Below are positions 1 to 33,825 of a stretch of DNA of 64,000 bases, one piece after another. The notes beneath the pieces were generated by a model. It did not search any database. It was not told the origin of the DNA and was given only the letters and a program-made list of their open reading frames with translations. Origin of the DNA: a virus (Duplodnaviria; Caudoviricetes); IMG/VR virus record IMGVR_UViG_3300028591_000128, positions 32,001 through 96,000 of that record. The stretch is one strand, 5' to 3'. The position numbers and the translations under genes were made by a program. Within the stretch, counting starts at the first letter, position 1, and each line of letters opens with the position of its first letter.

Positions 1-57
1 TTAGAAGTGGTGGTATTCTGCCGAAAATTGGATAAAGTGTAGCACACTCTGTTTTCT

Positions 58-799
58 TTTTGATACCTATGTAATTCCATACCTAAACAAAACATTATTC
101 CAAGCCAATTAAATCATCCTCTCATTTGACACCTATGTAATTTAATCATCAATCAAAACTTCTGATAAATATGCAGTTGGTGGTCATGATTTGATACCTG
201 TGTAATTTCATAGTTTATCAAAACTATAACGTATTACCATTGAGTTTGACTATGTTTGATACCTATATAACTTTGCAGTCTGTCAAAACCGGTATCTTAC
301 CTAAGCCGTTTTCCACAGGTTTGATGCCTATGTAAACTCACAGTCTAACAAAACCAAGATGTTCCTGTCGATGCCATCAAGGAAGTTTGACATCAGTGTA
401 ATTTCATAGCCCAACAAAACTGATAAGCAAATAAGACGAAAATGCCGCTCAGAGTTTGACACCTATGTAATTTCACAGTCCAACAAAATCCTCAGACAAA
501 TACCTGTTCGACACCTGTGTAATTTCATCGTCTACCAAAACTCCACAATGATTGACTTGAAATACCCCTTCGTTTGACACCTGTGTAACTTCATGGTTCA
601 ACAAACCGAACCGCTATCCAAATTACGCTTAGTTTGACACCCGTGTAATTTCACAGTTCATCAAAACAACATATGCATGGGAAATGGAGCCGCCAACGTT
701 TGACACCTGTGTAATTTCACAGTTCAACAAAACGAATATGCGCTGGAACAGTTCTATCAGAAAGTTTGACACCCGTGTAATTTCACAGTCCAACAAAAC
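58..799 (-). CRISPR. CRISPR array: 12 repeats of 36 nt (minus-strand consensus GTTTTGTTGAACTGTGAAATTACACAGGTGTCAAAC) and 11 spacers
   Basis: Repeats read at 58-93, 124-159, 189-224, 254-289, 319-354, 385-420, 454-489, 506-541, 572-607, 632-667, 698-733, 764-799. Spacers are 30,29,29,29,30,33,16,30,24,30,30 nt and unique. Repeats degenerate progressively toward low coordinates, which places the leader at the 800 end. Confidence 0.95.
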
Positions 800-806
800 C
801 TCAAAT
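800..806 (-). promoter_or_regulatory. ATTTGAG leader-repeat junction (type II-A leader-anchoring-like motif)
   Basis: Plus strand ctcaaat abuts repeat 764-799, so the minus strand reads ATTTGAG|GTTTTG. This is the junction known from S. thermophilus CRISPR1-type II-A arrays. Confidence 0.7.
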
Positions 807-818
807 CACACGTATTCA

Positions 819-908
819 GTTTTGACAGAGCATATTTACAAAGGCTTGGTGAGTGTGTTATAGATTGGATGTTCAATCATACCTCACCTTAAGGCCGTCA
901 AATCGGCC
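819..908 (-). ncRNA. Scaffold A: putative tracrRNA for the array (hairpin with AUUUGA loop, GGUGAG/CUCACC stem, anti-repeat)
   Basis: Minus strand reads GGCCG-ATTTGA-CGGCC ... GGTGAG ... CTCACC ... TGTAAATATGCTCTGTCAAAAC. The last part (819-840) is complementary to the repeat 5' part (GTTTTG...TTACA), and the loop is complementary to the repeat 3' end TCAAA. Confidence 0.7.
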
Positions 909-976
909 CTGTATATTAAATTTTATATTTGAATTTAACAGATTCTTCTGATTTTCATACACCTCCAGGGCCAGTG

Positions 977-1007
977 GTTTGATGCTTATGCTATCCATAG
1001 TTTCAAC
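977..1007 (-). repeat. Solitary degenerate CRISPR repeat
   Basis: gtttgatgcttatgctatccatagtttcaac aligns with the array repeat gtttgacacctgtgtaatttcacagttcaac. Confidence 0.5.
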
Positions 1008-1123
1008 ATTTGACACCTATGCAATCATGATAGTTGAATCATGTAGGATTGCAAGAGCTTAGTGAGTGTGTTACAGACAATGCTGAGACCATCCTGCCTC
1101 ACTTTACGGCTGTCAAATCAGCC
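1008..1123 (-). ncRNA. Scaffold B: second copy, fused in cis to a repeat half (single-guide-like)
   Basis: GGCTG-ATTTGA-CAGCC hairpin and AGTGAG/CTCACT stem, then a TGCAATC..CATGAT / ATCATG-ATTGCA hairpin running into TAGGTGTCAAAT (repeat 3' end). Confidence 0.65.
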
Positions 1124-1147
1124 GGTTAGTATAATAACAATTCTGCC

Positions 1148-1186
1148 GCTTGATATCTATGTAATTATCTGTATTCCATCAATAAC
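1148..1186 (-). repeat. Solitary degenerate CRISPR repeat
   Basis: gcttgatatctatgtaattatctgtattccatcaataac retains ttgaY..ctatgtaatt and the terminal aa.aac of the array repeat. Confidence 0.5.
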
Positions 1187-1274
1187 TTTGATATCTACTT
1201 AGACATAGACTCGGTGAGTGCGTTATAAGCAAGAAAAATCTGCTATGCAACACCATAAGGCTGTCAAATCAACC
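1187..1274 (-). ncRNA. Scaffold C: third copy, overlapping the stop codon of the Cas12f-like gene (omega-RNA-like position)
   Basis: GGTTG-ATTTGA-CAGCC pairs only on the minus strand, through a G:U pair. It is followed by a GGTG..CACC stem and a short ATGTCTA/TAGATAT hairpin ending in TCAAA. Confidence 0.6.
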
Positions 1275-2603
1275 AATTACCGTCATATTTTTAGCCTTAT
1301 TATAGGCATGACTTATCGTTTTACCGCAATGAGGACAAGTGAATGATACTTCCTGTGTCCACTCGAATACCTTCGGAATGACTTCTTCTGTACAGAATAC
1401 TTCTCCACATGAACTACATACATTCCGGACTGTCCGAAGAACATCAGTCTTTTTATCTGTCTTATCAGCCATCTTACTTGTGGTTACAACAATACCCTCA
1501 CGTTCTGCCTTATAGGTAATGAACTGCACCAACTGATAATAAGACCAATTCCGGAGCAATACCGGGTAATCATCAAGATCAGACTTCGTTACGTCTTCTA
1601 CAACGATAGCTGATACTTTATTCTCCTTTGCAAACTCTACAACCATTTTACTAAGATTATGGTTATATGTCTGCACATAATTCTTCTCGTAAGATTTATG
1701 TGTTTCAAGTTTTGCCAACTTCTTTCCACGACCATGCCCACCATTGGAATACTTTAAAGCTCTCTGAAGATTCTCAAAGTGGATCTGAATGTCCTTGCGT
1801 TTTGCTACAAGATCATTCTTTATTGATCCACCAATCTCATGTTCATCATCATCTGTAGAAAGTGCGGCAACAAGACATTTATCATATCCAAGAGCAAGTC
1901 CCATGATCTTACCATGTTCAGGTATATATTCTTCTGCATCCTTCTCAATCTTAACGGAAAGATTTAAAATTATCTTACCTTTGTTCGTGATTTGAATCGT
2001 GCTACCACAAACCTTATAATGTTCTGGATCGGTTACAATAGATTCCAAAAGTGATGGAAGGAACTTATCCGGACTCTTATTCTTACCTGCACCAAGATAC
2101 AGCTTGAAATGGATTCCGTTTACAAACTTAAAGAAATAGGCATTTACTGTCTTTTCCGTTCCATCATCTGTAGTGTATGTATCATCACCAGTATAAATAG
2201 TAATGAATCTGCTTGGAACCATAAGTGGGAAATCTCTTTTGTAAAATGGTAGATTCCGCTCACCCTTTGCAAGTCCATTCCTCAATGCTATGGAGAAATC
2301 CTGCTTTACTTTCATACCACAGTTACCAGCCATACCCAAACCCTTTGCCTGTTTCATATCATATATGGCGGTATTTGTGTTCCGGAAGATCATCTTCATC
2401 TCTTCCTTGAAGTTCGGATCGTTGAAATTCTTATCATACTTATAATACAGGCATCCAACCTGTGACATATAAGTATTCAAGATACAATACTGATTGTAGA
2501 TCCCATCACGAAGGTACTGATATACCCTATCCCGTTCTTCTTTATCACCTACCGGGAATAACTGAATCTTCTTCGTTGTGATTGTAGTTGTTTTCTTCTG
2601 CAT
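1269..2603 (-). CDS. cas12f: Cas12f/TnpB-family RNA-guided protein, predicted nuclease-dead (444 aa)
   Basis: Cas12f1-like motifs GGHGRGKKL, YNHNLSKMVVEFA, IVVEDV, RNWSYYQL..YKAEREGI and a CxxC...CxxC zinc finger. RuvC-I reads MGLALG (A237 in place of D) and RuvC-III reads SHAYNKAKN (A433 in place of D). E336 is retained. The gene is adjacent to the CRISPR array. Confidence 0.85.
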   Translation of the reverse strand: MQKKTTTITTKKIQLFPVGDKEERDRVYQYLRDGIYNQYCILNTYMSQVGCLYYKYDKNFNDPNFKEEMKMIFRNTNTAIYDMKQAKGLGMAGNCGMKVKQDFSIALRNGLAKGERNLPFYKRDFPLMVPSRFITIYTGDDTYTTDDGTEKTVNAYFFKFVNGIHFKLYLGAGKNKSPDKFLPSLLESIVTDPEHYKVCGSTIQITNKGKIILNLSVKIEKDAEEYIPEHGKIMGLALGYDKCLVAALSTDDDEHEIGGSIKNDLVAKRKDIQIHFENLQRALKYSNGGHGRGKKLAKLETHKSYEKNYVQTYNHNLSKMVVEFAKENKVSAIVVEDVTKSDLDDYPVLLRNWSYYQLVQFITYKAEREGIVVTTSKMADKTDKKTDVLRTVRNVCSSCGEVFCTEEVIPKVFEWTQEVSFTCPHCGKTISHAYNKAKNMTVIG

Positions 2604-2673
2604 ACTCGTGTACTCCTTGTACTATTGATATTTTGTATGTTTTTGGTATTCTACATCCTATAACGATTTCAAC

Positions 2674-2835
2674 TTAAAAATCTAACATACCGAATTTACG
2701 AAACCCCTTCTTCCAAGCAACACGTTCTTTCTTATGGTACATCATATCCCGTTTCATTCGAAATACTGGACCTTTCTCACCACCACAGTCAAGATATGTA
2801 CGCTTGCACTTATTCTTCTTATTCTGACTTGCCAT
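2674..2835 (-). CDS. Small basic protein, 53 aa (MASQNKKNKCKRTYLDCGGEKGPVFRMKRD...), not in ORF track
   Basis: Translated by hand. It has an AGGAGG RBS and a consensus promoter directly upstream. Confidence 0.6.
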   Translation of the reverse strand: MASQNKKNKCKRTYLDCGGEKGPVFRMKRDMMYHKKERVAWKKGFRKFGMLDF

Positions 2836-2883
2836 GACAACAACCTCCTTTTGGATACTTAATATTTGTTCATTACAAGTATA

Positions 2884-2912
2884 AGTATATACTAATATTT
2901 ATAGAAAGTCAA
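2884..2912 (-). promoter_or_regulatory. Sigma-A type early promoter TTGACT-N17-TATACT
   Basis: -35 at 2907-2912 and -10 at 2884-2889. It is part of a ~95-bp cassette also found at ~10272-10368. Confidence 0.75.
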
Positions 2913-2961
2913 TACCAAAAATGAAAATATTTTCTACAAAAAATCTTTCACAGATGACATT

Positions 2962-3624
2962 CTAGTCAATTGAAATCTTAGCAAACTTATCTATATCCTT
3001 TTGTGTATCTATATCACAAGTATAGTCATTGATTACTGTATAGTTTGTGTAATCTATCTTGTTAATAGGTGTTCCCTTAACTACCTGCCAGAACTCCCAA
3101 GCTATTGGTGCTCTTCTGAATTTCTTTTGATCTGCAAGTTTCCTACATTCTTCTTGTACTTTTTTCAAATGATTTGTATTTACAACTTTGAAAGCAAATG
3201 GTTCTGCGTAAGGTTTGATATATTCTTTTGAGAATGGTGGAGCAGATGCGAAGAATTCGATATCATCTGTAGATGTGTTCACGATAATATTGATCGCGTT
3301 TTGCGAGAACACAACATCCCCCATAAGGTAGCAAGCAGGCTCACCGATTGGGTAAAAGGCATCGCACCAATACCCGGAAGAATGTCCTGGCCGGTGTACT
3401 ACCCAATTATTGTTATTCATCCATAGATAATTTACATCTATATCATGACAATGTACCTTTATAGATTCGACATTTGTTGATACATAAATATCCTCATGCG
3501 GAATACCGGATTTTTCTAATAATCTTGCGGTCCGCTGTATAAGGGTTTCACCATTGATCCTAACCAACTGCCTTGGCAATTCCCAATGTTCATACTTACC
3601 ACCTGCCATAATAATGTAAATCAT
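2962..3624 (-). CDS. Nucleotidyltransferase-like protein (NTP_transferase/LicC/MobA fold)
   Basis: N-terminal IIMAGG...PRQLVRINGETLIQRT, internal YLMGDVVF, C-terminal DIDT. Confidence 0.65.
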   Translation of the reverse strand: MIYIIMAGGKYEHWELPRQLVRINGETLIQRTARLLEKSGIPHEDIYVSTNVESIKVHCHDIDVNYLWMNNNNWVVHRPGHSSGYWCDAFYPIGEPACYLMGDVVFSQNAINIIVNTSTDDIEFFASAPPFSKEYIKPYAEPFAFKVVNTNHLKKVQEECRKLADQKKFRRAPIAWEFWQVVKGTPINKIDYTNYTVINDYTCDIDTQKDIDKFAKISID

Positions 3625-4726: not shown

Positions 4727-6094
4727 TTATTCAAATCTTGCAAGTGTATATGCAAGTTCTGTTTCAAATGAATCCTTAGCTGCCAATAAGCATTGCTGAA
4801 TTGTGCCATCAAAGTTGCAATAATACAAATCAATAGTACATATGATGGTTGCAATATCTTCCCTAAGTACATCAAGTACAGATTCTACATTATCTCTATC
4901 AACAGCATCTGCAAGTTTCATTGGATGTGGTGCATATCCGAATAACTTATAATGTTCGACAGATAGTTGATCAATAAGACCATTAGACATCCACATATAA
5001 GAATCTGCAATCGTCTTTATACTTGTGTAATTAGGACCAGTTACATTCCAAGATGCCCACAGGCAATCTAATGACAAGTTGTATAATGTACGGAGAATGT
5101 CATCTATACATGTATCCATACTGACTTCAAAGTAATCACAGGGAACTATGTCATAGTTATCCCCATCCATTTCTACAGAATATGATGCAGGTTCATTCTC
5201 TGGAAGAGAATCTACAAAATCCGGATTTTCTACTATATTGGATACTAACTCAGTGGTATCTGTAACATTACAAGGTGAATCTATAGCAACCAACTGAATA
5301 TCCATCATATCATTTGCTACTACTTTTTGTAATGTAACTTTTATATTAGTAGACAACTGTATAGGTTGTGTATCTTCCACAGTTTCATCAACACCTAATT
5401 TCTCAAACAGCTTCACCATCTCATCATCTATGGTATCATTAACAGTTTTTTTAACTAACTTCGCAAACTCTTCATTTGTTAATTCAGAAACATCTATATC
5501 TTCACTCAAACTTAACTTTACAGCCTTATCAACAACTGCCTTTGAGTTATCATCTTCTTTTCTTCTCAATGCACAATCAATGATTGCGTAATCATCAGAA
5601 CATCCTACAAGTTTTATACCAAATATATATGGGTAGTTACCTTTTTTCTTTTGATCTTCAGTATAATCTCCGGCTGTTAATACTTCCATATAATCCCAAC
5701 CGCTATCAAACTTAACTTCTTTGCCATCTTTTCCATTAGTACGTATCTTCTCAACAGTATCCTCTGTAAGAACCTTGTCAAAAGTCTTATTGAGGGATTT
5801 AAGAAATGTATCAAACAACTTAGCACCTGTATTTAAAATAGTAGAAACTAATCCAGCTTCTACAGATTCTTTACCATCAGTAGATTCTGAATCATAAATA
5901 TAGTCTTCAGGATAATTCTCCCGCATGTAGTTGGATTCGTATTCATCATCCTGCCATGCAAAATTAATCCGTTCTTTCAAATTCTGATAAGTTTCATGAT
6001 CAAATTCATCCCAAGTGGATTCATCAGGATGTTGTTTCAACCAATCTTCTAATTCTTTTTCCAATTTATATGGATCTTCATACTGTCTATACAT
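4727..6094 (-). CDS. Acidic modular protein: N-terminal MYRQYEDP module and C-terminal degenerate Dps/ferritin-like domain
   Basis: The N-terminus is shared with 56577..57152, which suggests a start at 6094. C-terminal LY...WASWNVTGPNY..I....D.Y......ID resembles Dps HWNVxGxxF without the histidines. Confidence 0.6.
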   Translation of the reverse strand: MYRQYEDPYKLEKELEDWLKQHPDESTWDEFDHETYQNLKERINFAWQDDEYESNYMRENYPEDYIYDSESTDGKESVEAGLVSTILNTGAKLFDTFLKSLNKTFDKVLTEDTVEKIRTNGKDGKEVKFDSGWDYMEVLTAGDYTEDQKKKGNYPYIFGIKLVGCSDDYAIIDCALRRKEDDNSKAVVDKAVKLSLSEDIDVSELTNEEFAKLVKKTVNDTIDDEMVKLFEKLGVDETVEDTQPIQLSTNIKVTLQKVVANDMMDIQLVAIDSPCNVTDTTELVSNIVENPDFVDSLPENEPASYSVEMDGDNYDIVPCDYFEVSMDTCIDDILRTLYNLSLDCLWASWNVTGPNYTSIKTIADSYMWMSNGLIDQLSVEHYKLFGYAPHPMKLADAVDRDNVESVLDVLREDIATIICTIDLYYCNFDGTIQQCLLAAKDSFETELAYTLARFE

Positions 6095-28031: not shown

Positions 28032-30449
28032 TTAGTACTGTATGTTTTGTCCGACTGGTAAACTAGCAGCAACCCATTTACCATTAACAACTGTTAATAC
28101 TTTTCCATCATCTAAATCTGATACTTCTGGAAGTTCAACTGCGCTTTCAATGAGGTCAACAATCGGCTGAAACTCCTCTGTGATATACTCCACCTCCATA
28201 TCTCCCGTACTGCTCTCTATGTGGGTGTAGCCGGAGAGAGATTTGATTGGGAGGTTGGTTTGGGTGATGGTTTCAGTGGTGGGAGTGGTGAGCAATCCAC
28301 ATATTTCCAAGTTGTTATTTGATAAATAATTAGTAAAATCAGAAAGACTTGAAGCACTCGGAAATCCTACATATAATCGGTTATTTACATAAGCAAAAGA
28401 TGGGCCTCTTCCAGCGTATGCACTTTCATTGTCCGCAACAAGATAATTGGAAAATCCATTATCAAGTGTTTGCCCCCAAATTGAAGCAAACCCTAAATTA
28501 CCGTCTAATATAAAACATGTCGGTCTATCTACTGAGGCTTGTTGCCAGTTTTCTGTGCCATCAAATACAACCTTTTTCCACTCTGTTGTCACTTCCCCAT
28601 TCACCACATCCTCACTCCCTCGATAGATAGCAGAGGGGTAGGTGGTGGTGTGGGTGGTGGAGGTGTAGGGTTCGTATGTGGTTGGTACAGAACCCTTTTC
28701 AATTTGCCAATCATAATCAAGTGGGTCATTTCTGACCGGATTATATCGACTTGCCACCGTCACATATCCATCAATCGACTCACACGTTATAGGTGTTGAA
28801 TTGATAACTCCATTGGTGGCTGATGATGCACCACTATCTACATTTCCCGGCAAGAAGAAAATATCTCTATAATTTTCCTGTCCTCCGCCTGTTGGAGGGC
28901 AATTAGTTGACATGGTAAATGTTCCCTCACCAACAAACATAGGCTTATATGTGAGAGTGCCTGTGTGGTTGAAATCATTTTTATCACAGAGGTTCTTCCC
29001 CCTCACCTCAATCTCCCCCTCCGTATATCCGCTTATGGGGCAGATGTTGGAGTAGGGGGTGAAGGTGGGGTCGGATTCTGTAGAGAGACGAATCATGGGC
29101 TTGAATAAAAGGTTGTTCGCCGTGTAACCGTTACGGATAGTAATATATGCCGAGCTGATATTTGCGGTTGGGGTAGTTTCTGATATGAGTCTCCAATCAT
29201 TTGCATTATATGCGTTTATAAATATATCCGTTACATCGGAATATACCTGTAATGCAAATGTGGTTTCAGAACCTCCGTTTATACCACCATTTACAACATA
29301 AGTTCCATCAAATGTGCCTAACGATGTAATATTCGCAACAAGGAAATAAGTAACCGCATTTGCCGTACCATTTACTTTTATACCCGTAACATTATCATCA
29401 CCATCCGTTTCTAACGTAAAAGTTACTCCATTCCGAGTGTAGACATTTCCACTCCAAGTACCACCAGTATTGATTGCCTTTATCCCGTCAACCGTCATAG
29501 GGAGTTTATTCTTTCCACTACCACCTACCCACGGCTTATCATATCCATGCAAGTCCTGATTTCCTTGGATGGCGGTTACGCACTTTACCAAAGGTGCGTC
29601 TGCTCCATCGGTTATCTCGATAGGATTTCCGCTTGCGGTCTTGGTTACGGATGCTTTATCTTCTATTTCCTCTGTAATCTTATTACTACTCCATGTAGTA
29701 TCTGTATCTGTTGCGGTATCATCAATTATATTATCAATCTTATCAGTTATTGATTCACCATTGATCTCTACATCCTGTGCAGTTACTACACCTTCTTTAG
29801 ATACTTTGAAAGTTGCATCAGAATAATCATCTTGTGATCCACCACCTGCAAACAAGTATCCGGAATTCGGTTCAGCTATTTCTGAAAACTTTCCATCATC
29901 TACATATACTTGTGCAGAATCTAACATATATCTTGCGGCATCTTCAAGAGACAGAGTTTTATCCGGAATTACAGAAATTCCAGTAGCAGGACTTCCCCAA
30001 TAGGCATAAGTACCGCCACAGTAATACCATGTTGTACCATTATAATCAAAACTATATGCTGTGTTATTCCATGAGAAATATGTTGAATCTGCTTCTGTAG
30101 ATACCAATACAATAGCATGATTCTGACCATCACCTGGTGTACCAATTACTCCACCAAATGCAGGCTTCGCATTCGTCTTAGTGTATGTTCGATCCCCTAA
30201 TGAGAACTCAGCCGCAGTATCAAAATAATATGTTTTATTCTCACATCCCCAACCGAGTTCGTTTACATCATAATTTGCATAAACTTTTACACCATCTTCG
30301 GATATATCAATGTTGTCCGGTGGTGTAATATCATCAACTCTCTGTGTAAGTGAAGTTAAATCCGTTCTTCCTTTCTTATCAACAAGTTCAATTTCATCTT
30401 GTATTCCAAACTCTTGTAGATTTAATTTACTTGCAGGTCTTGTAGCCAT
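28032..30449 (-). CDS. Tail fibre / receptor-binding protein
   Basis: TWSSNKI, GKNKL/GKNLC, QIEKGSVPTTYEPY, LPEVSDLDDGKVLTVVNGKW motifs typical of Firmicute phage fibres. Confidence 0.75.
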   Translation of the reverse strand: MATRPASKLNLQEFGIQDEIELVDKKGRTDLTSLTQRVDDITPPDNIDISEDGVKVYANYDVNELGWGCENKTYYFDTAAEFSLGDRTYTKTNAKPAFGGVIGTPGDGQNHAIVLVSTEADSTYFSWNNTAYSFDYNGTTWYYCGGTYAYWGSPATGISVIPDKTLSLEDAARYMLDSAQVYVDDGKFSEIAEPNSGYLFAGGGSQDDYSDATFKVSKEGVVTAQDVEINGESITDKIDNIIDDTATDTDTTWSSNKITEEIEDKASVTKTASGNPIEITDGADAPLVKCVTAIQGNQDLHGYDKPWVGGSGKNKLPMTVDGIKAINTGGTWSGNVYTRNGVTFTLETDGDDNVTGIKVNGTANAVTYFLVANITSLGTFDGTYVVNGGINGGSETTFALQVYSDVTDIFINAYNANDWRLISETTPTANISSAYITIRNGYTANNLLFKPMIRLSTESDPTFTPYSNICPISGYTEGEIEVRGKNLCDKNDFNHTGTLTYKPMFVGEGTFTMSTNCPPTGGGQENYRDIFFLPGNVDSGASSATNGVINSTPITCESIDGYVTVASRYNPVRNDPLDYDWQIEKGSVPTTYEPYTSTTHTTTYPSAIYRGSEDVVNGEVTTEWKKVVFDGTENWQQASVDRPTCFILDGNLGFASIWGQTLDNGFSNYLVADNESAYAGRGPSFAYVNNRLYVGFPSASSLSDFTNYLSNNNLEICGLLTTPTTETITQTNLPIKSLSGYTHIESSTGDMEVEYITEEFQPIVDLIESAVELPEVSDLDDGKVLTVVNGKWVAASLPVGQNIQY

Positions 30450-30465: not shown

Positions 30466-31176
30466 TTATTCAACAGTTATAGTCTTTTCTGATTTTGTAA
30501 GTGTTGTATCTACACTACCGGATGGTGTTCCTGTTACACTTACATTTCCACTTGTACCTGTAAATGTAGGTTGTGTTGATACACCATCTGCAACAGTTAC
30601 AGCCTCATAAGTCGGAAGTGTTCCGGCATGGAATACTAACACATCATCTACAAGTTCAGCGGTAGGAAGTGTCCCGGCATTAGTCATACTATTTATGGAA
30701 TCTGTAGATAATACTACATCACTTATAGTTCCATCTGGTGTAAATGTACCTGTGGAAGTTAGGGCATCTCCTGTAAATGTACTGGATGCATCTGTGACAT
30801 AATCATCAACTGTGCCAGATGCACTATCCTTAAATGCAAGAAGTCCTAAACCGGATACATCGCCAAGTGCTTGCCATACTTCCCCATCATAGATAAACTC
30901 ATCATGATTGTAAGATGCCATATCTCCACGAACTGCGGTTACAGATTTACCATCAACTTGAATAGGATTAGTAGTTGCACCATCAGAAAGTGGAGTAGTT
31001 GTTACACCAATCCACTTTACGGCTTTCTCTCCACCACCGCCACCACCTTGTTCAAGGAGTTCCATCAATAATTCCTCAACCCGTGTTTGAGGTGGTTGTA
31101 ATTCATTACTTGCACCAAGCATATTTTCAAGTATTGCTTCAACTCGATTCTGTGGATTACCTAAATCTCTTGTCAT
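30466..31176 (-). CDS. Minor tail/fibre protein
   Basis: PQNRVE repeats, GLGLLAFKDSASG, TFTG/TPSG repeats. Confidence 0.65.
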   Translation of the reverse strand: MTRDLGNPQNRVEAILENMLGASNELQPPQTRVEELLMELLEQGGGGGGEKAVKWIGVTTTPLSDGATTNPIQVDGKSVTAVRGDMASYNHDEFIYDGEVWQALGDVSGLGLLAFKDSASGTVDDYVTDASSTFTGDALTSTGTFTPDGTISDVVLSTDSINSMTNAGTLPTAELVDDVLVFHAGTLPTYEAVTVADGVSTQPTFTGTSGNVSVTGTPSGSVDTTLTKSEKTITVE

Positions 31177-31290
31177 AATTTGTTACCTCACGAATCATTC
31201 TATTATATAACTATAAAAGGTTTGATAGTACAAAGAAAGGGCGAATCTTAGGTTAGTAAGATCCACCCATGTGCTAGTTTACTTAGGAAA

Positions 31291-33825
31291 CTATTCAGTA
31301 TCAGAATCCGAATCAGAATCCGTATCGGAATCAGGTTCATACTCATTGAAGAATACACCGTAATCAATTCGCATGAACTGTCCGGATGTTTTTGTAAATG
31401 GTTGTGAAGGTGTCCAAACAGTTGCAAGATAATTTTGCATACGCATTACAGTTATAGTACAATCTACGGTAGTTGAATTTGATACTACAATATAGGAAAT
31501 CATCGGCTTATCATTAGATTTACATACTGTAGAAGTTGTTGCAGGTCCATATGTCATATTTACAGGGGAAATAGTGTTAGAATCAAAGTTGAATACACTT
31601 GTATTGTTACCATAACCATTACACAGTAACATTCTTCCAGAACCCAAGGATCTACTTGTCAGTTCCCAACCAAATGTGTTTGTGCATTCTTGGAAATTTC
31701 CCCAAGTACCATTTGTACGTTTCATTGAATAGATTATGTCAGTTTCACGAAGTTCCGAGTAAACATATCCATAGTACCCATTTATCCAAGCAACTGTGTC
31801 CTTATCAATCCAAATAGCTTCACGCATAGTATACATCGTACGAGTTCCAGAATATAAATTAGGTATGATAGATTCTGTGCATGTACCGGCTACGGGATCA
31901 ATTTCCCACATCTTCTGATCATAACCATTACCCCACTCTGTACCACCTTGATTAGCACTTAAGCATATTAAAGTTGTACCATTATCTTGAATGAGTCTGT
32001 TACTTACCGTTATTCCTTGCGTATAACCACTATATGTAAGATTTGTCTTCAGATCCGCAGGCATAGTCAGTTCCACAGGTTCTTGCATTTCTTGACATGT
32101 AGATGTAGTCCCCTTAAGATTCAATTCTGTCAATGGCAACCTGTATTTATGGATAATTATTTTATCATTAGTAGTATCAAACACAACGCCATATACGGAT
32201 GAATCAGATATACTGAGCCTACACGGAACACCTATAATAGTGTAAGGAGTTGAACTACCATATGCATTAGTTAATTCAGCAGATGAAGGTTTACGAACAT
32301 TACTTATGGCGTTTCCCATACCTGCCCAACCCCAGTTACGGGATGTTAAAGATATTGCCGCAATAGTCCCATTTCCTTGACTTAATCCCCACTCCCAAAC
32401 GAAATGGTAAGAACCGTCATCTTTCCAACCGCTTCCATCTGTACCTTCAGCAACCCAATTACCCATTTCTGATGGATCACCAGTTGTGCTACCATTTGAT
32501 ACATCATAAGCAGCATTAGCAACCATCGATGTACTAGATGGTGGAAGTACAGTAGATGCGGATGGAGTTACAGTAGAATCAAATGCAAGCATGCCACCTA
32601 ATAGTTGTTTAACTAGATTATTTCGATCAGTGTTATCACTATTCATAAATCCGCAGTTTGTAAAGAACTCTGCAAGACCATTGGTTTGCATATTATCTGA
32701 TTCAATTACCGTCTCCTGTTGCGTAGCATCATCTGTTAATGTTACTTTTACATGACCTGTAAAACTTAAAGGAGATGGACTTGTAGATAATTGTGTATTT
32801 GCAATATGCTCAAGTGCTTGAACAATAGTTCCACCAGAACCACTTGGAAATTCCATCCATTGTCCGAGGATCTTCCCATATACAACAGATATACCATTTG
32901 AACCGTATTGCAGATAGATATCACCATCATTACCAAGTGACACTGTAGGTTCAGTAGTACCTTGATAAGTATGTGCTCCACCTGAACTGTCTTTAATCGC
33001 TTTAAGTTGTGATGCAATATCTGTTTTCACCCAACTATTAGCATCCCAAGCCCCTGTAGTGTTATCATATCTGCATACGTAATATTCGTTCTGATAAACT
33101 ACATATTCACCAGCAGAATACGTCCTACTTGGAACATAATCTTGTCCTACAATAGACTTTCTTGTATTTAATTCTGTGATAATTCCTTCGGCAGTAACAA
33201 GTCTTGCATTTATTGCGGTCACATTGGATGACAATGTACTAAGGTCAGATGCTACCGAAGATATAGCAGTTCTCAGATCCTGAATCAACGAAGAAATGGA
33301 CTTGACTTCAAATGCATATGACACACTAGACCATGTACCAGATATGTTATTTAAAGTACATCTATACAGTATGTTGTCATGTATAACTAAATCACCTTCA
33401 TTGTAAGTATGATTTTCAATGAAGTTTTCCCCAATGTCTTCAATTAATATTTCTACAATATTATTTAATCCGGATATCTGAGTTGTATGTGTATCTACAA
33501 CAACACTTATATCGTGTGTTTTAGTATCAATGTACCATACAACTGGAATTTCATCCCAATCATGGGAATCAAATGTTCCTGATGTTGGAGATGTAGCAAT
33601 GTAGAAATTGTCACTGAATGTACATGTATCTCCGGTATCATATGAAGAATTAGGATCATATGGTGGAGCAATAACTGATTGTGATATTCCAGAGGATGGT
33701 CCGCCTCCACCACCAATATCAGATACTTTTATTCGTCTAGTGCCACTATTAGCATTATCTATCAACAAGTAATCGTTATCTTGATATGTAGTTGTTGATG
33801 GATATTGGTTAATTCTAGTACCCAT
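31291..33825 (-). CDS. Tail fibre-like protein with three CBM5/12-like aromatic repeats
   Basis: YDPNSSYDTGDTC, FIENHTYNEGDLVIHDNILYRC, YVPSRTYSAGEYVVYQNEYYVC; GNDGDIYLQ motif. Confidence 0.65.
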   Translation of the reverse strand: MGTRINQYPSTTTYQDNDYLLIDNANSGTRRIKVSDIGGGGGPSSGISQSVIAPPYDPNSSYDTGDTCTFSDNFYIATSPTSGTFDSHDWDEIPVVWYIDTKTHDISVVVDTHTTQISGLNNIVEILIEDIGENFIENHTYNEGDLVIHDNILYRCTLNNISGTWSSVSYAFEVKSISSLIQDLRTAISSVASDLSTLSSNVTAINARLVTAEGIITELNTRKSIVGQDYVPSRTYSAGEYVVYQNEYYVCRYDNTTGAWDANSWVKTDIASQLKAIKDSSGGAHTYQGTTEPTVSLGNDGDIYLQYGSNGISVVYGKILGQWMEFPSGSGGTIVQALEHIANTQLSTSPSPLSFTGHVKVTLTDDATQQETVIESDNMQTNGLAEFFTNCGFMNSDNTDRNNLVKQLLGGMLAFDSTVTPSASTVLPPSSTSMVANAAYDVSNGSTTGDPSEMGNWVAEGTDGSGWKDDGSYHFVWEWGLSQGNGTIAAISLTSRNWGWAGMGNAISNVRKPSSAELTNAYGSSTPYTIIGVPCRLSISDSSVYGVVFDTTNDKIIIHKYRLPLTELNLKGTTSTCQEMQEPVELTMPADLKTNLTYSGYTQGITVSNRLIQDNGTTLICLSANQGGTEWGNGYDQKMWEIDPVAGTCTESIIPNLYSGTRTMYTMREAIWIDKDTVAWINGYYGYVYSELRETDIIYSMKRTNGTWGNFQECTNTFGWELTSRSLGSGRMLLCNGYGNNTSVFNFDSNTISPVNMTYGPATTSTVCKSNDKPMISYIVVSNSTTVDCTITVMRMQNYLATVWTPSQPFTKTSGQFMRIDYGVFFNEYEPDSDTDSDSDSDTE

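Follow-up and report, generated by a model that had tools for sequence, protein, structure and literature searches.

Why would a phage place several copies of a guide RNA scaffold between one gene for a CRISPR effector and the associated array, and what might the individual copies be used for? This question is raised by positions 32,001–96,000 of the virus record IMGVR_UViG_3300028591_000128, a stretch of 64,000 nt that is referred to here as the window and whose features are read on the minus strand; the phage record as a whole (G000) comprises 106 kb and is 71% complete. In minus-strand order, a gene for a 444-aa Cas12f protein (1269–2603) is followed by three scaffold copies, termed C (1213–1274), B (1061–1123) and A (848–908), and by an array of 12 repeats (59–799), so that all three copies are situated between the cas12f gene and the array, on the same strand as the gene. 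A fourth copy (D) with its own six-repeat array is located outside the window (G000:30444–30510, minus strand). An earlier reading of the letters, termed the sequence-only reading, had counted three copies, which is correct for the window and one short of the total for the phage record. The analyses described here suggest that copies A–D are probably paralogous genes for the core of a Cas12f trans-activating CRISPR RNA (tracrRNA), each heading its own guide cassette for one nuclease-dead phage Cas12f. Copies A and D would be the canonical members of this set, and B and C members shortened by deletions to a single-guide type.

Structure and Conservation of the Scaffold Copies

The repeated module is ~62 nt long and shows a mean column identity of 81% across the three aligned copies. 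Its 5-bp hairpin (stem 1) reads GGCCG/CGGCC in copy A, GGCTG/CAGCC in B and GGTTG/CAGCC in C, the last including a G:U pair, and encloses an invariant ATTTGA loop. A second helix (stem 2) is formed by GGTGAG/CTCACC in A and by AGTGAG/CTCACT in B, which represents a compensatory change, and the sequence TAACRCACTCAC is common to A, B and C. The similarity also appears as two collinear three-copy repeat families (33 nt with 70–82% identity and 29 nt with 72–83% identity), with a spacing of 213–215 and 151–152. Hairpins, loop and stem variants are thus found on the minus strand exactly as the sequence-only reading had described them. It had also proposed an omega-RNA-like overlap with the gene. 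The GGTTGA of copy C indeed includes the last Gly codon and the TGA stop codon of the 444-aa gene; the overlap spans just 8 nt and is not shared by more distant relatives (L081, L102, L104, L106 and L107; L numbers designate the loci compared), in which the scaffold starts 10–30 nt past the stop codon.

A covariance model (R1; 11 pairs) was built from copies A, B and C, which match it with 84.1 bits (846–910), 81.5 bits (1059–1125) and 79.9 bits (1211–1276), respectively. Within the 106-kb phage record, R1 yields four matches, namely these three and copy D. Over 98 sources, 116 matches were obtained, all of them on the cas12f strand and just upstream or downstream of the gene, in dead and active relatives alike. 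The scaffold copies are not chance repeats, because the matches in the phage record are confined to the Cas12f locus and those in the relatives to the gene strand. Among 69 distinct sequences, 98% of the cells are in standard pairs and double-sided changes occur in 10 of the 11 pairs, in an alignment that was fitted to R1 and favors the structure, the margin being large nonetheless: none of 500 shuffles reached this level of pairing and sliding of the 3' partners reduced it to 34–46%. Covariation of both stem 1 and stem 2 is supported by these data, and the earlier description of tracr-type scaffolds with covarying stems is thereby borne out. The isolated fold of copy A, in addition, is better than that of 200 out of 200 shuffled sequences (z = -4.1). 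An Rfam scan of window positions 1–3000 identified no relevant family, and Rfam contains no model for the module. A reading as REP-like (repetitive extragenic palindromic) or terminator-like elements was considered and rejected, as the sole terminator-like match is the plus-strand complement of the copy A hairpin and the model matches are confined to cas12f loci.

The gene-proximal copies are also conserved individually. Copy B is found in L001 and, as the first cassette, in L002. Copy C and its counterpart in L001 differ at nine of 66 positions, and all changes within the helices keep or improve the pairing (one compensatory change from G-C to A-U, one from G:U to A-U and one from a mismatch to G-C). 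The hairpin of the L001 counterpart is identical to that of copy D. A scaffold of different appearance was observed in L106 (5080–5380), where an insertion of ~210 nt within distal stem 2 separates a 5' half at 5080–5130 from a 3' half (TAACACACTCGCTAAGCC) at ~5355–5378, the latter being followed by a normal anti-repeat and array.

Pairing of the Hairpin Loop With the Repeat End

The five bases at the 3' end of the local repeat are complementary to the loop of the stem 1 hairpin, and this relation is maintained in seven covarying combinations across loci. The loop ATTTGA occurs with the repeat end TCAAAC in the phage of the window and its close relatives, ATTCAG with CTGAAC in L081, ACCTTT with TAAAGG in L006–L009, ATTTTG with CAAAAT in L016, L020 and L062, ATTTTA with TAAAAC in L022, L030, L031 and L078, ATTTCG with CGAAAC in L066, L072 and L077, and ATTTAC with GTAAAT in L084 and L085. 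The ends of the repeat consensus sequences were used for this comparison, since counts of downstream 5-mers complementary to the loop and the distances to their first occurrence are too noisy in A/T-rich DNA. Within a single locus, L109, the relation can be followed from cassette to cassette: the ACTTGA loop is accompanied by six TCAAG and one TCAAA, the ATTTGA loop by no TCAAG and nine TCAAA (Fisher p = 0.0009), and the fifth cassette has an ATTTGC loop and then GCAAAC. The claimed pairing between the loop and the repeat's 3' end is therefore well founded.

Several nuclease-active relatives display two such combinations side by side. In L005 (3810–4260) and also in L006–L009, the array opens with a first repeat that is trimmed and joined to a scaffold (ACCTTT/TAAAGG), and a second compact scaffold downstream uses the combination ATTTTG/CAAAAT, which amounts to two addressing codes per locus.

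Identity of the RNA

The guide RNA in the cryogenic electron microscopy (cryo-EM) structure of RhCas12f starts with AC-GGCUG-AUUUAG-CAGCC, followed by a stem of UCUGAGGGC...GCCACUCGGA and the bases AAGG, and contains a repeat part that ends in GUAAAU. The guide RNA of OsCas12f follows the same plan (GGGCCG-ACUUCC-CGGCCC, repeat end UUGAAGG), and published tracrRNAs begin 1–2 nt 5' of the stem 1 hairpin. Because the phage module matches the 5' core of these two RNAs, as judged by eye at the level of motifs and not by R1 scores, it is best described as the core (stems 1 and 2) of a Cas12f tracrRNA already known and, by this likeness, is no new RNA class. OsCas12f activity was reported to increase about tenfold upon deletion of the repeat:anti-repeat stem (PMC13186708), which makes naturally trimmed scaffolds mechanistically credible.

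Canonical and Compact Cassettes

Each cassette has a stem that is formed by the sequence following the scaffold and the segment immediately preceding the TCAAA motif and that varies solely in length: it comprises ~15 bp in L104, 12 bp in copy B, and 6–8 bp or less in copy C and the L109 cassettes. A graded series is thus observed, which leads from copy A with its separate anti-repeat and full array to the cis-joined, single-guide-like copies B and C, and fused forms do stand beside split ones, as the sequence-only reading had noticed. Copies A and D consist of the scaffold, a 27-nt anti-repeat, a 19-nt linker ending in ATTTGAG, full 36-nt repeats and spacers of ~30 nt. In copy A, the anti-repeat (819–845) was recognized by its likeness to the reverse complement of the repeat; the complementarity is imperfect (TGTAA...GTCAAAAC vs. 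GTTTTG...TTACA in the repeat). In L104 and L107, the corresponding segments are almost perfectly complementary to the repeats of the respective locus. The linker (800–818), which resembles a type II-A leader end and is common to the A and D arrays and most relatives, abuts the first repeat of the main array (59–799). This array was delimited by repeat finding and contains 12 repeats of 36 nt that end in TCAAAC, no two of which are identical, and spacers of mostly ~30 nt, with two short exceptions of 16 nt (490–505) and 24 nt (608–631).

Copy B forms a 12-bp cis duplex with the 3' half of a repeat (TGATTGCATAGGTGTCAA), a half that is conserved in L001 and L002. Its tail (1008–1058; fold of -13.0 kcal/mol), composed of this anti-repeat:repeat hairpin and GGTGTCAAAT, has the appearance of a natural single-guide-type junction. 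It is directly followed by a degenerate repeat of 31 nt (977–1007) with the end GCATCAAAC, which aligns to a full repeat at the same place in L002, and then by the 21-nt, spacer-like sequence CACTGGCCCTGGAGGTGTATG (956–976), which is unique in the window and kept in L001 and L002 while its flanks vary. According to the alignment, the cassette in the window is devoid of ~30 nt that L001 and L002 carry before the degenerate repeat, a shortfall that fits a secondary collapse. The tail of copy C (1186–1210; fold of -5.0 kcal/mol) comprises a short hairpin and TATCAAAG, which can be read as a trimmed anti-repeat:repeat stem with the pseudoknot motif; the stem closes just before the TCAAA motif and the tail is nearly identical in L001. 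An orphan degenerate repeat of full length (38 nt, 1148–1185; end ATCAAGC), a member of repeat family D4, occupies the guide slot of copy C and is identical in L001 at 38 of 38 positions.

L001, L002 and L102 likewise have compact cassettes beside the gene, and the cassettes of L109 are all compact, with units of 24–32 nt that end in a mini-repeat of ~12 nt. At L102:4400–4690 and L109:4412–5140, these ~12-nt repeats follow compact scaffolds, end in GCATCAAAC or ATCAAR and alternate with spacers of ~19–28 nt. Of the repeat, they retain the pseudoknot motif alone.

In both full arrays, the ATTTGAG at the end of the linker abuts a first repeat that begins with GTTTTG (window 800–806; G000 ~30398–30404), a junction that B and C do not possess. 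In group 1 type II-A arrays, leader and repeat meet at a conserved ATTTGAG/GTTT junction (PMC5382924). As the heptamer is unchanged in L081 despite the different loop of this locus, it is not considered part of the RNA pairing; its presence at the junction indicates that the tracrRNA gene occupies the place of an array leader. Spacer uptake may consequently depend on a type II-A adaptation module of the host. Cas1 was not found in the phage record.

An A/T-rich box ahead of the scaffolds is conserved in L001, L002, L102, L106 and copy D, and most scaffolds of the relatives are preceded by an A/T-rich box of the TATA type. In the window, AAAATTTAATATAC (911–924) directly 5' of copy A is a candidate -10 region, and a stretch upstream of copy B (1126–1147; consensus scan match 1159–1131) contains a -10-like TATTAT with a TG extension. 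These boxes before A and B might act as promoters, and the transcription starts and processing of the RNAs are predictions of the same kind.

Two further observations concern the surroundings of such cassettes. In L081 (3850–4130), a dead-Cas12f locus on a contig of a Lachnospiraceae metagenome-assembled genome, tRNA-like sequences (GGTTCGATTCC motifs) are located between two scaffold-array cassettes. In the phage record itself, an intact-looking TnpB gene of 429 aa lies between the main array and the copy D cassette (G000:C1 ~30629–31918, minus strand; L114:1686–2975). It matches OrfB_IS605 (5e-27), shows visible catalytic Asp/Glu/Asp motifs and has an omega-RNA-like tail. A copy with ~84% identity in a Lachnospiraceae genome (G319, L115) provides a hint at the host family.

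A Nuclease-Dead Cas12f

The 444-aa protein (P0001) matches RhCas12f (9NZP, 1.7e-49) and CnCas12f1 (8HR5, 3e-40) in the PDB as well as the Pfam Cas12f1-like TNB domain and is, judged by these matches, a bona fide Cas12f. Its RuvC-I Asp is replaced by Ala (GLALG vs. GVDLG in relatives), as is the RuvC-III Asp (SHAYNKAKN vs. NADYNAARN in relatives). The RuvC-II Glu is retained, the protein has its full length and the zinc finger is intact. Loss of both RuvC aspartates is common to a whole clade with 37–96% identity, and the Asp-Glu-Asp triad is kept in every other relative compared (L005–L100). The dead clade corresponds to one side of a 100%-supported branch in a protein tree that is unrooted and hence permits no claim of a nested placement. 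Relatives are found on contigs of 63–253 kb with phage-type genes. No sigma factor was detected among the eight neighboring open reading frames (ORFs) scanned, and a description of this phage-borne dead-Cas12f clade was not found in the literature searched. RNA-guided DNA binding without cutting would be the likeliest activity of such an effector.

Search for Targets

No spacer or guide slot has a match elsewhere in the incomplete 106-kb phage record, where the slots of B and C match only themselves. The GenBank phage collection contains no match to the locus or its spacers, neither in near nor in distant mode. In 401 Lachnospiraceae genomes, matches remained at the level of chance except for spacer A11 (window 94–124), which agrees at 25 of 26 bases with L116:1501–1526. 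This site is located in the 5' part of a gene for a 178-aa protein in a Lachnospiraceae genome, directly following a gene for an AbiLi-type ATPase (PADLOC, 1.5e-41). The E-value of 2.6e-4 per genome corresponds to ~0.1 chance matches expected over 401 genomes, and the AbiL-type operon is therefore regarded as a possible host-defense target and a lead only. Nothing firm emerged when the D array as well as the arrays of L002 and L102 were searched against genomes G013 and G319. For the 21-nt spacer of copy B, the 401 genomes contain matches with three mismatches only (12 vs. 3 for a reversed control), and the matches in IMG/VR are situated in unrelated GC-rich phages, together with one AT-rich coding match (L132).

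Proposed Function and Alternative Explanations

The explanation considered probable here, four paralogous tracrRNA-core genes that each head a guide cassette, implies the following scheme. A 5-bp pseudoknot would arise between the loop of stem 1 and the final bases of the CRISPR RNA (crRNA) repeat, beside the GUGAG/CUCAC helix of stem 2. For the RNAs of A and D, the pairing partner would be the first repeat in cis and the later repeats in trans. Deletions would have joined anti-repeat and repeat in B (12-bp hairpin) and C (6–8-bp hairpin), giving rise to natural single-guide-type scaffolds. Most likely, the scaffold RNAs would load the dead Cas12f for DNA binding without cutting, i.e., for transcriptional silencing during infection, with B and C as sources of additional scaffold and perhaps of hard-wired guides. 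In a more tentative extension, which we hold to be rather unlikely as a whole, the pseudoknot of loop and repeat end may serve as an address code that keeps each scaffold together with its cognate guides. A single dead effector might in this way use several guide sets against host defense genes: full arrays, which the adaptation machinery of the host would replenish via a type II-A-style leader, and hard-wired, trimmed single guides. The related suggestion of the sequence-only reading, that one effector is given both fixed and adaptive guides, is plausible though unproven: the leader junction of A and D speaks for the adaptive part, and the sequences in the guide slots of B and C speak against the fixed part.

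Several observations weigh against the proposed scheme. The guide slots directly 3' of B and C hold repeat-like remnants instead of spacers, and the 21-nt sequence in B is the sole conserved spacer. Only four of six pairs form in stem 2 of copy C, for which no clear promoter box of its own was found either. The isolated folds of B and C are weaker than that of A (z = -1.2 and -1.9, respectively), with many shuffled sequences folding as well, and the support for these two copies consequently comes from comparative data and not from folding energy, to which the structure-favoring alignment mentioned above has to be added. The pair-preserving differences in copy C could stem from gene conversion by functional copies in place of selection on C itself. 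Finally, none of the spacers led to a convincing target; the proposed DNA binding and silencing are for this reason deduced solely from the dead active site.

Part of these findings would be accommodated if B and C were non-functional relics of a tracrRNA-plus-array unit that was duplicated in tandem and then eroded by deletions, with only A and D at work. The degenerate repeats in both guide slots, the ~30-nt shortfall of the B cassette relative to L001 and L002, the weakened stem 2 of copy C and the variation of the B anti-repeat region among close relatives all agree with such decay. Relics would, however, hardly be expected to reach model scores of 79.9–81.5 bits, as high as the 84.1 bits of copy A, or to preserve pairing in their helix changes. 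Moreover, compact cassettes next to the gene persist in relatives at 82–98% protein identity, L109 possesses compact cassettes only, with motifs that match their own loops, and B retains one conserved spacer. We therefore regard decay as unlikely, if worth keeping in view. Alternatively, the extra copies might be devoid of guides and merely raise or time the supply of tracrRNA for the ~18 spacers, C being transcribed on the 3' end of the cas12f mRNA and B and A from their own promoters. All four loops are ATTTGA, so that any copy could serve any repeat, and the location of C at the stop codon without a clear box as well as the A/T-rich boxes at B and A are in line with this arrangement. Yet, the anti-repeat of B and C is held in a cis hairpin or trimmed away, which is a poor fit to a trans-acting tracrRNA, and the conserved spacer after B would be left unexplained. 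A pure supply function thus appears quite improbable.

Even smaller credence is given to two readings that assign the locus another origin or another opponent. Phage-borne dead effectors with several tracrRNA genes could act as an anti-CRISPR decoy that captures the crRNAs of a host Cas12f, a role that has been proposed for a phage RuvC-dead Cas9 with its tracrRNA (PMC11656645). The phage of the window keeps long arrays of its own, though, with spacer turnover among relatives, and the 401 Lachnospiraceae genomes sampled yielded no host array with comparable repeats, which makes a decoy very unlikely. The view of the locus as a snapshot of the transition from TnpB to CRISPR, offered by the sequence-only reading, would make the fused forms ancestral and the locus an intermediate between an omega-RNA and a split tracrRNA:crRNA pair. 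It can draw on the published route from TnpB to Cas12, in which a single omega-RNA is split into tracrRNA and crRNA (Jin et al., 2025, as cited in PMC13565253), and on the observation that arrays of active relatives, L005 among them, can likewise begin with a scaffold-fused unit. The effector protein, however, is of the typical Cas12f kind, active and dead members of the family alike carry the scaffold together with arrays, B and C still contain parts of full repeats and appear to have arisen by deletion, the short overlap with the gene is not conserved and no transposon ends flank the gene. This view was abandoned as hardly credible, and the explanation by paralogous, partly shortened tracrRNA-core genes is preferred.

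What is unusual about the locus is a natural side-by-side series from dual-RNA to compact single-guide cassettes for a phage-borne dead-Cas12f clade. Such a series offers natural designs for very short Cas12f guide scaffolds and a tractable case for the fusion and splitting of guide RNAs in evolution. The comparative evidence that a 5-bp pseudoknot sets the match between scaffold and guide bears on orthogonal multiplexing. If host defense genes were truly the targets, the locus would represent phage counter-defense via CRISPR interference.

Comparison With Known Systems

Stand-alone repeat-like regulatory RNAs (tracr-L, CreR and mini-arrays; Shmakov et al., 2023, bioRxiv 10.1101/2023.03.03.530964) resemble the phage copies as extra repeat-containing RNAs within a cas locus and outside the main array. 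In contrast to these RNAs, the guide slots of B and C show no partial match to the cas promoter or the rest of the 106-kb record (71% complete), and an assignment to the autoregulatory tracr-L/CreR type was rejected.

With TnpB omega-RNAs and the TranC intermediates (Jin et al., Cell 2025), as far as these are described in PMC13565253, the phage RNAs share a scaffold directly 5' of the guide, a pseudoknot with the sequence just before the guide and, for one copy, contact with the 3' end of the gene. They differ from this description in the mere 8 nt of non-conserved overlap, the lack of transposon ends, the presence of real arrays and fused forms that look secondary. Classification as TnpB omega-RNA was dismissed, since the substantial overlap with the 3' end of the ORF is missing and four scaffolds and two arrays without ends of an insertion sequence (IS) take the place of one scaffold, one guide and one transposon end.

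A dead Cas12f with several scaffold-plus-guide genes per locus is also known from the chimeric guides of dCas12f-sigmaE systems (Hoffmann et al., Nature 2026, PMC13472631), for which a collapse from dual to single guides was proposed and a locus with both guide RNAs and CRISPR arrays was presented. The compaction of B and C appears to parallel the collapse proposed for these unrelated systems. They are, however, chromosomal, rpoE-linked systems of Bacteroidota with a C-terminally truncated protein, whereas the phage protein is of full length with point substitutions, is phage-borne and is accompanied by canonical arrays. With its complete C-terminus and no extracytoplasmic function (ECF) sigma factor gene (rpoE) among the eight neighboring ORFs, the locus was not counted among the dCas12f-sigmaE guide RNA systems. 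The other array-linked dCas12f cluster mentioned in the same study belongs to Chitinophagaceae and is hence distinct from the phage clade.

The closest counterparts are the type V-F Cas12f tracrRNAs and single guide RNAs of RhCas12f, OsCas12f and CnCas12f1 (9NZP, 9NZQ, 8HR5; PMC13186708). Common features are the 5' hairpin and the complementarity of its loop to the repeat's 3' end, a stem 2 of the form xxUGAG...CUCAxx, the AAGG or AAGCC sequence and the anti-repeat:repeat stem just before the guide. The RNA is likewise encoded beside the gene, and the protein of this group is the closest solved relative of the phage effector. Unlike these systems, the phage possesses four scaffold copies, in two of which the anti-repeat:repeat stem is naturally trimmed, its RNA is devoid of a stem 3 between stem 2 and the anti-repeat, and its effector has lost both RuvC aspartates.

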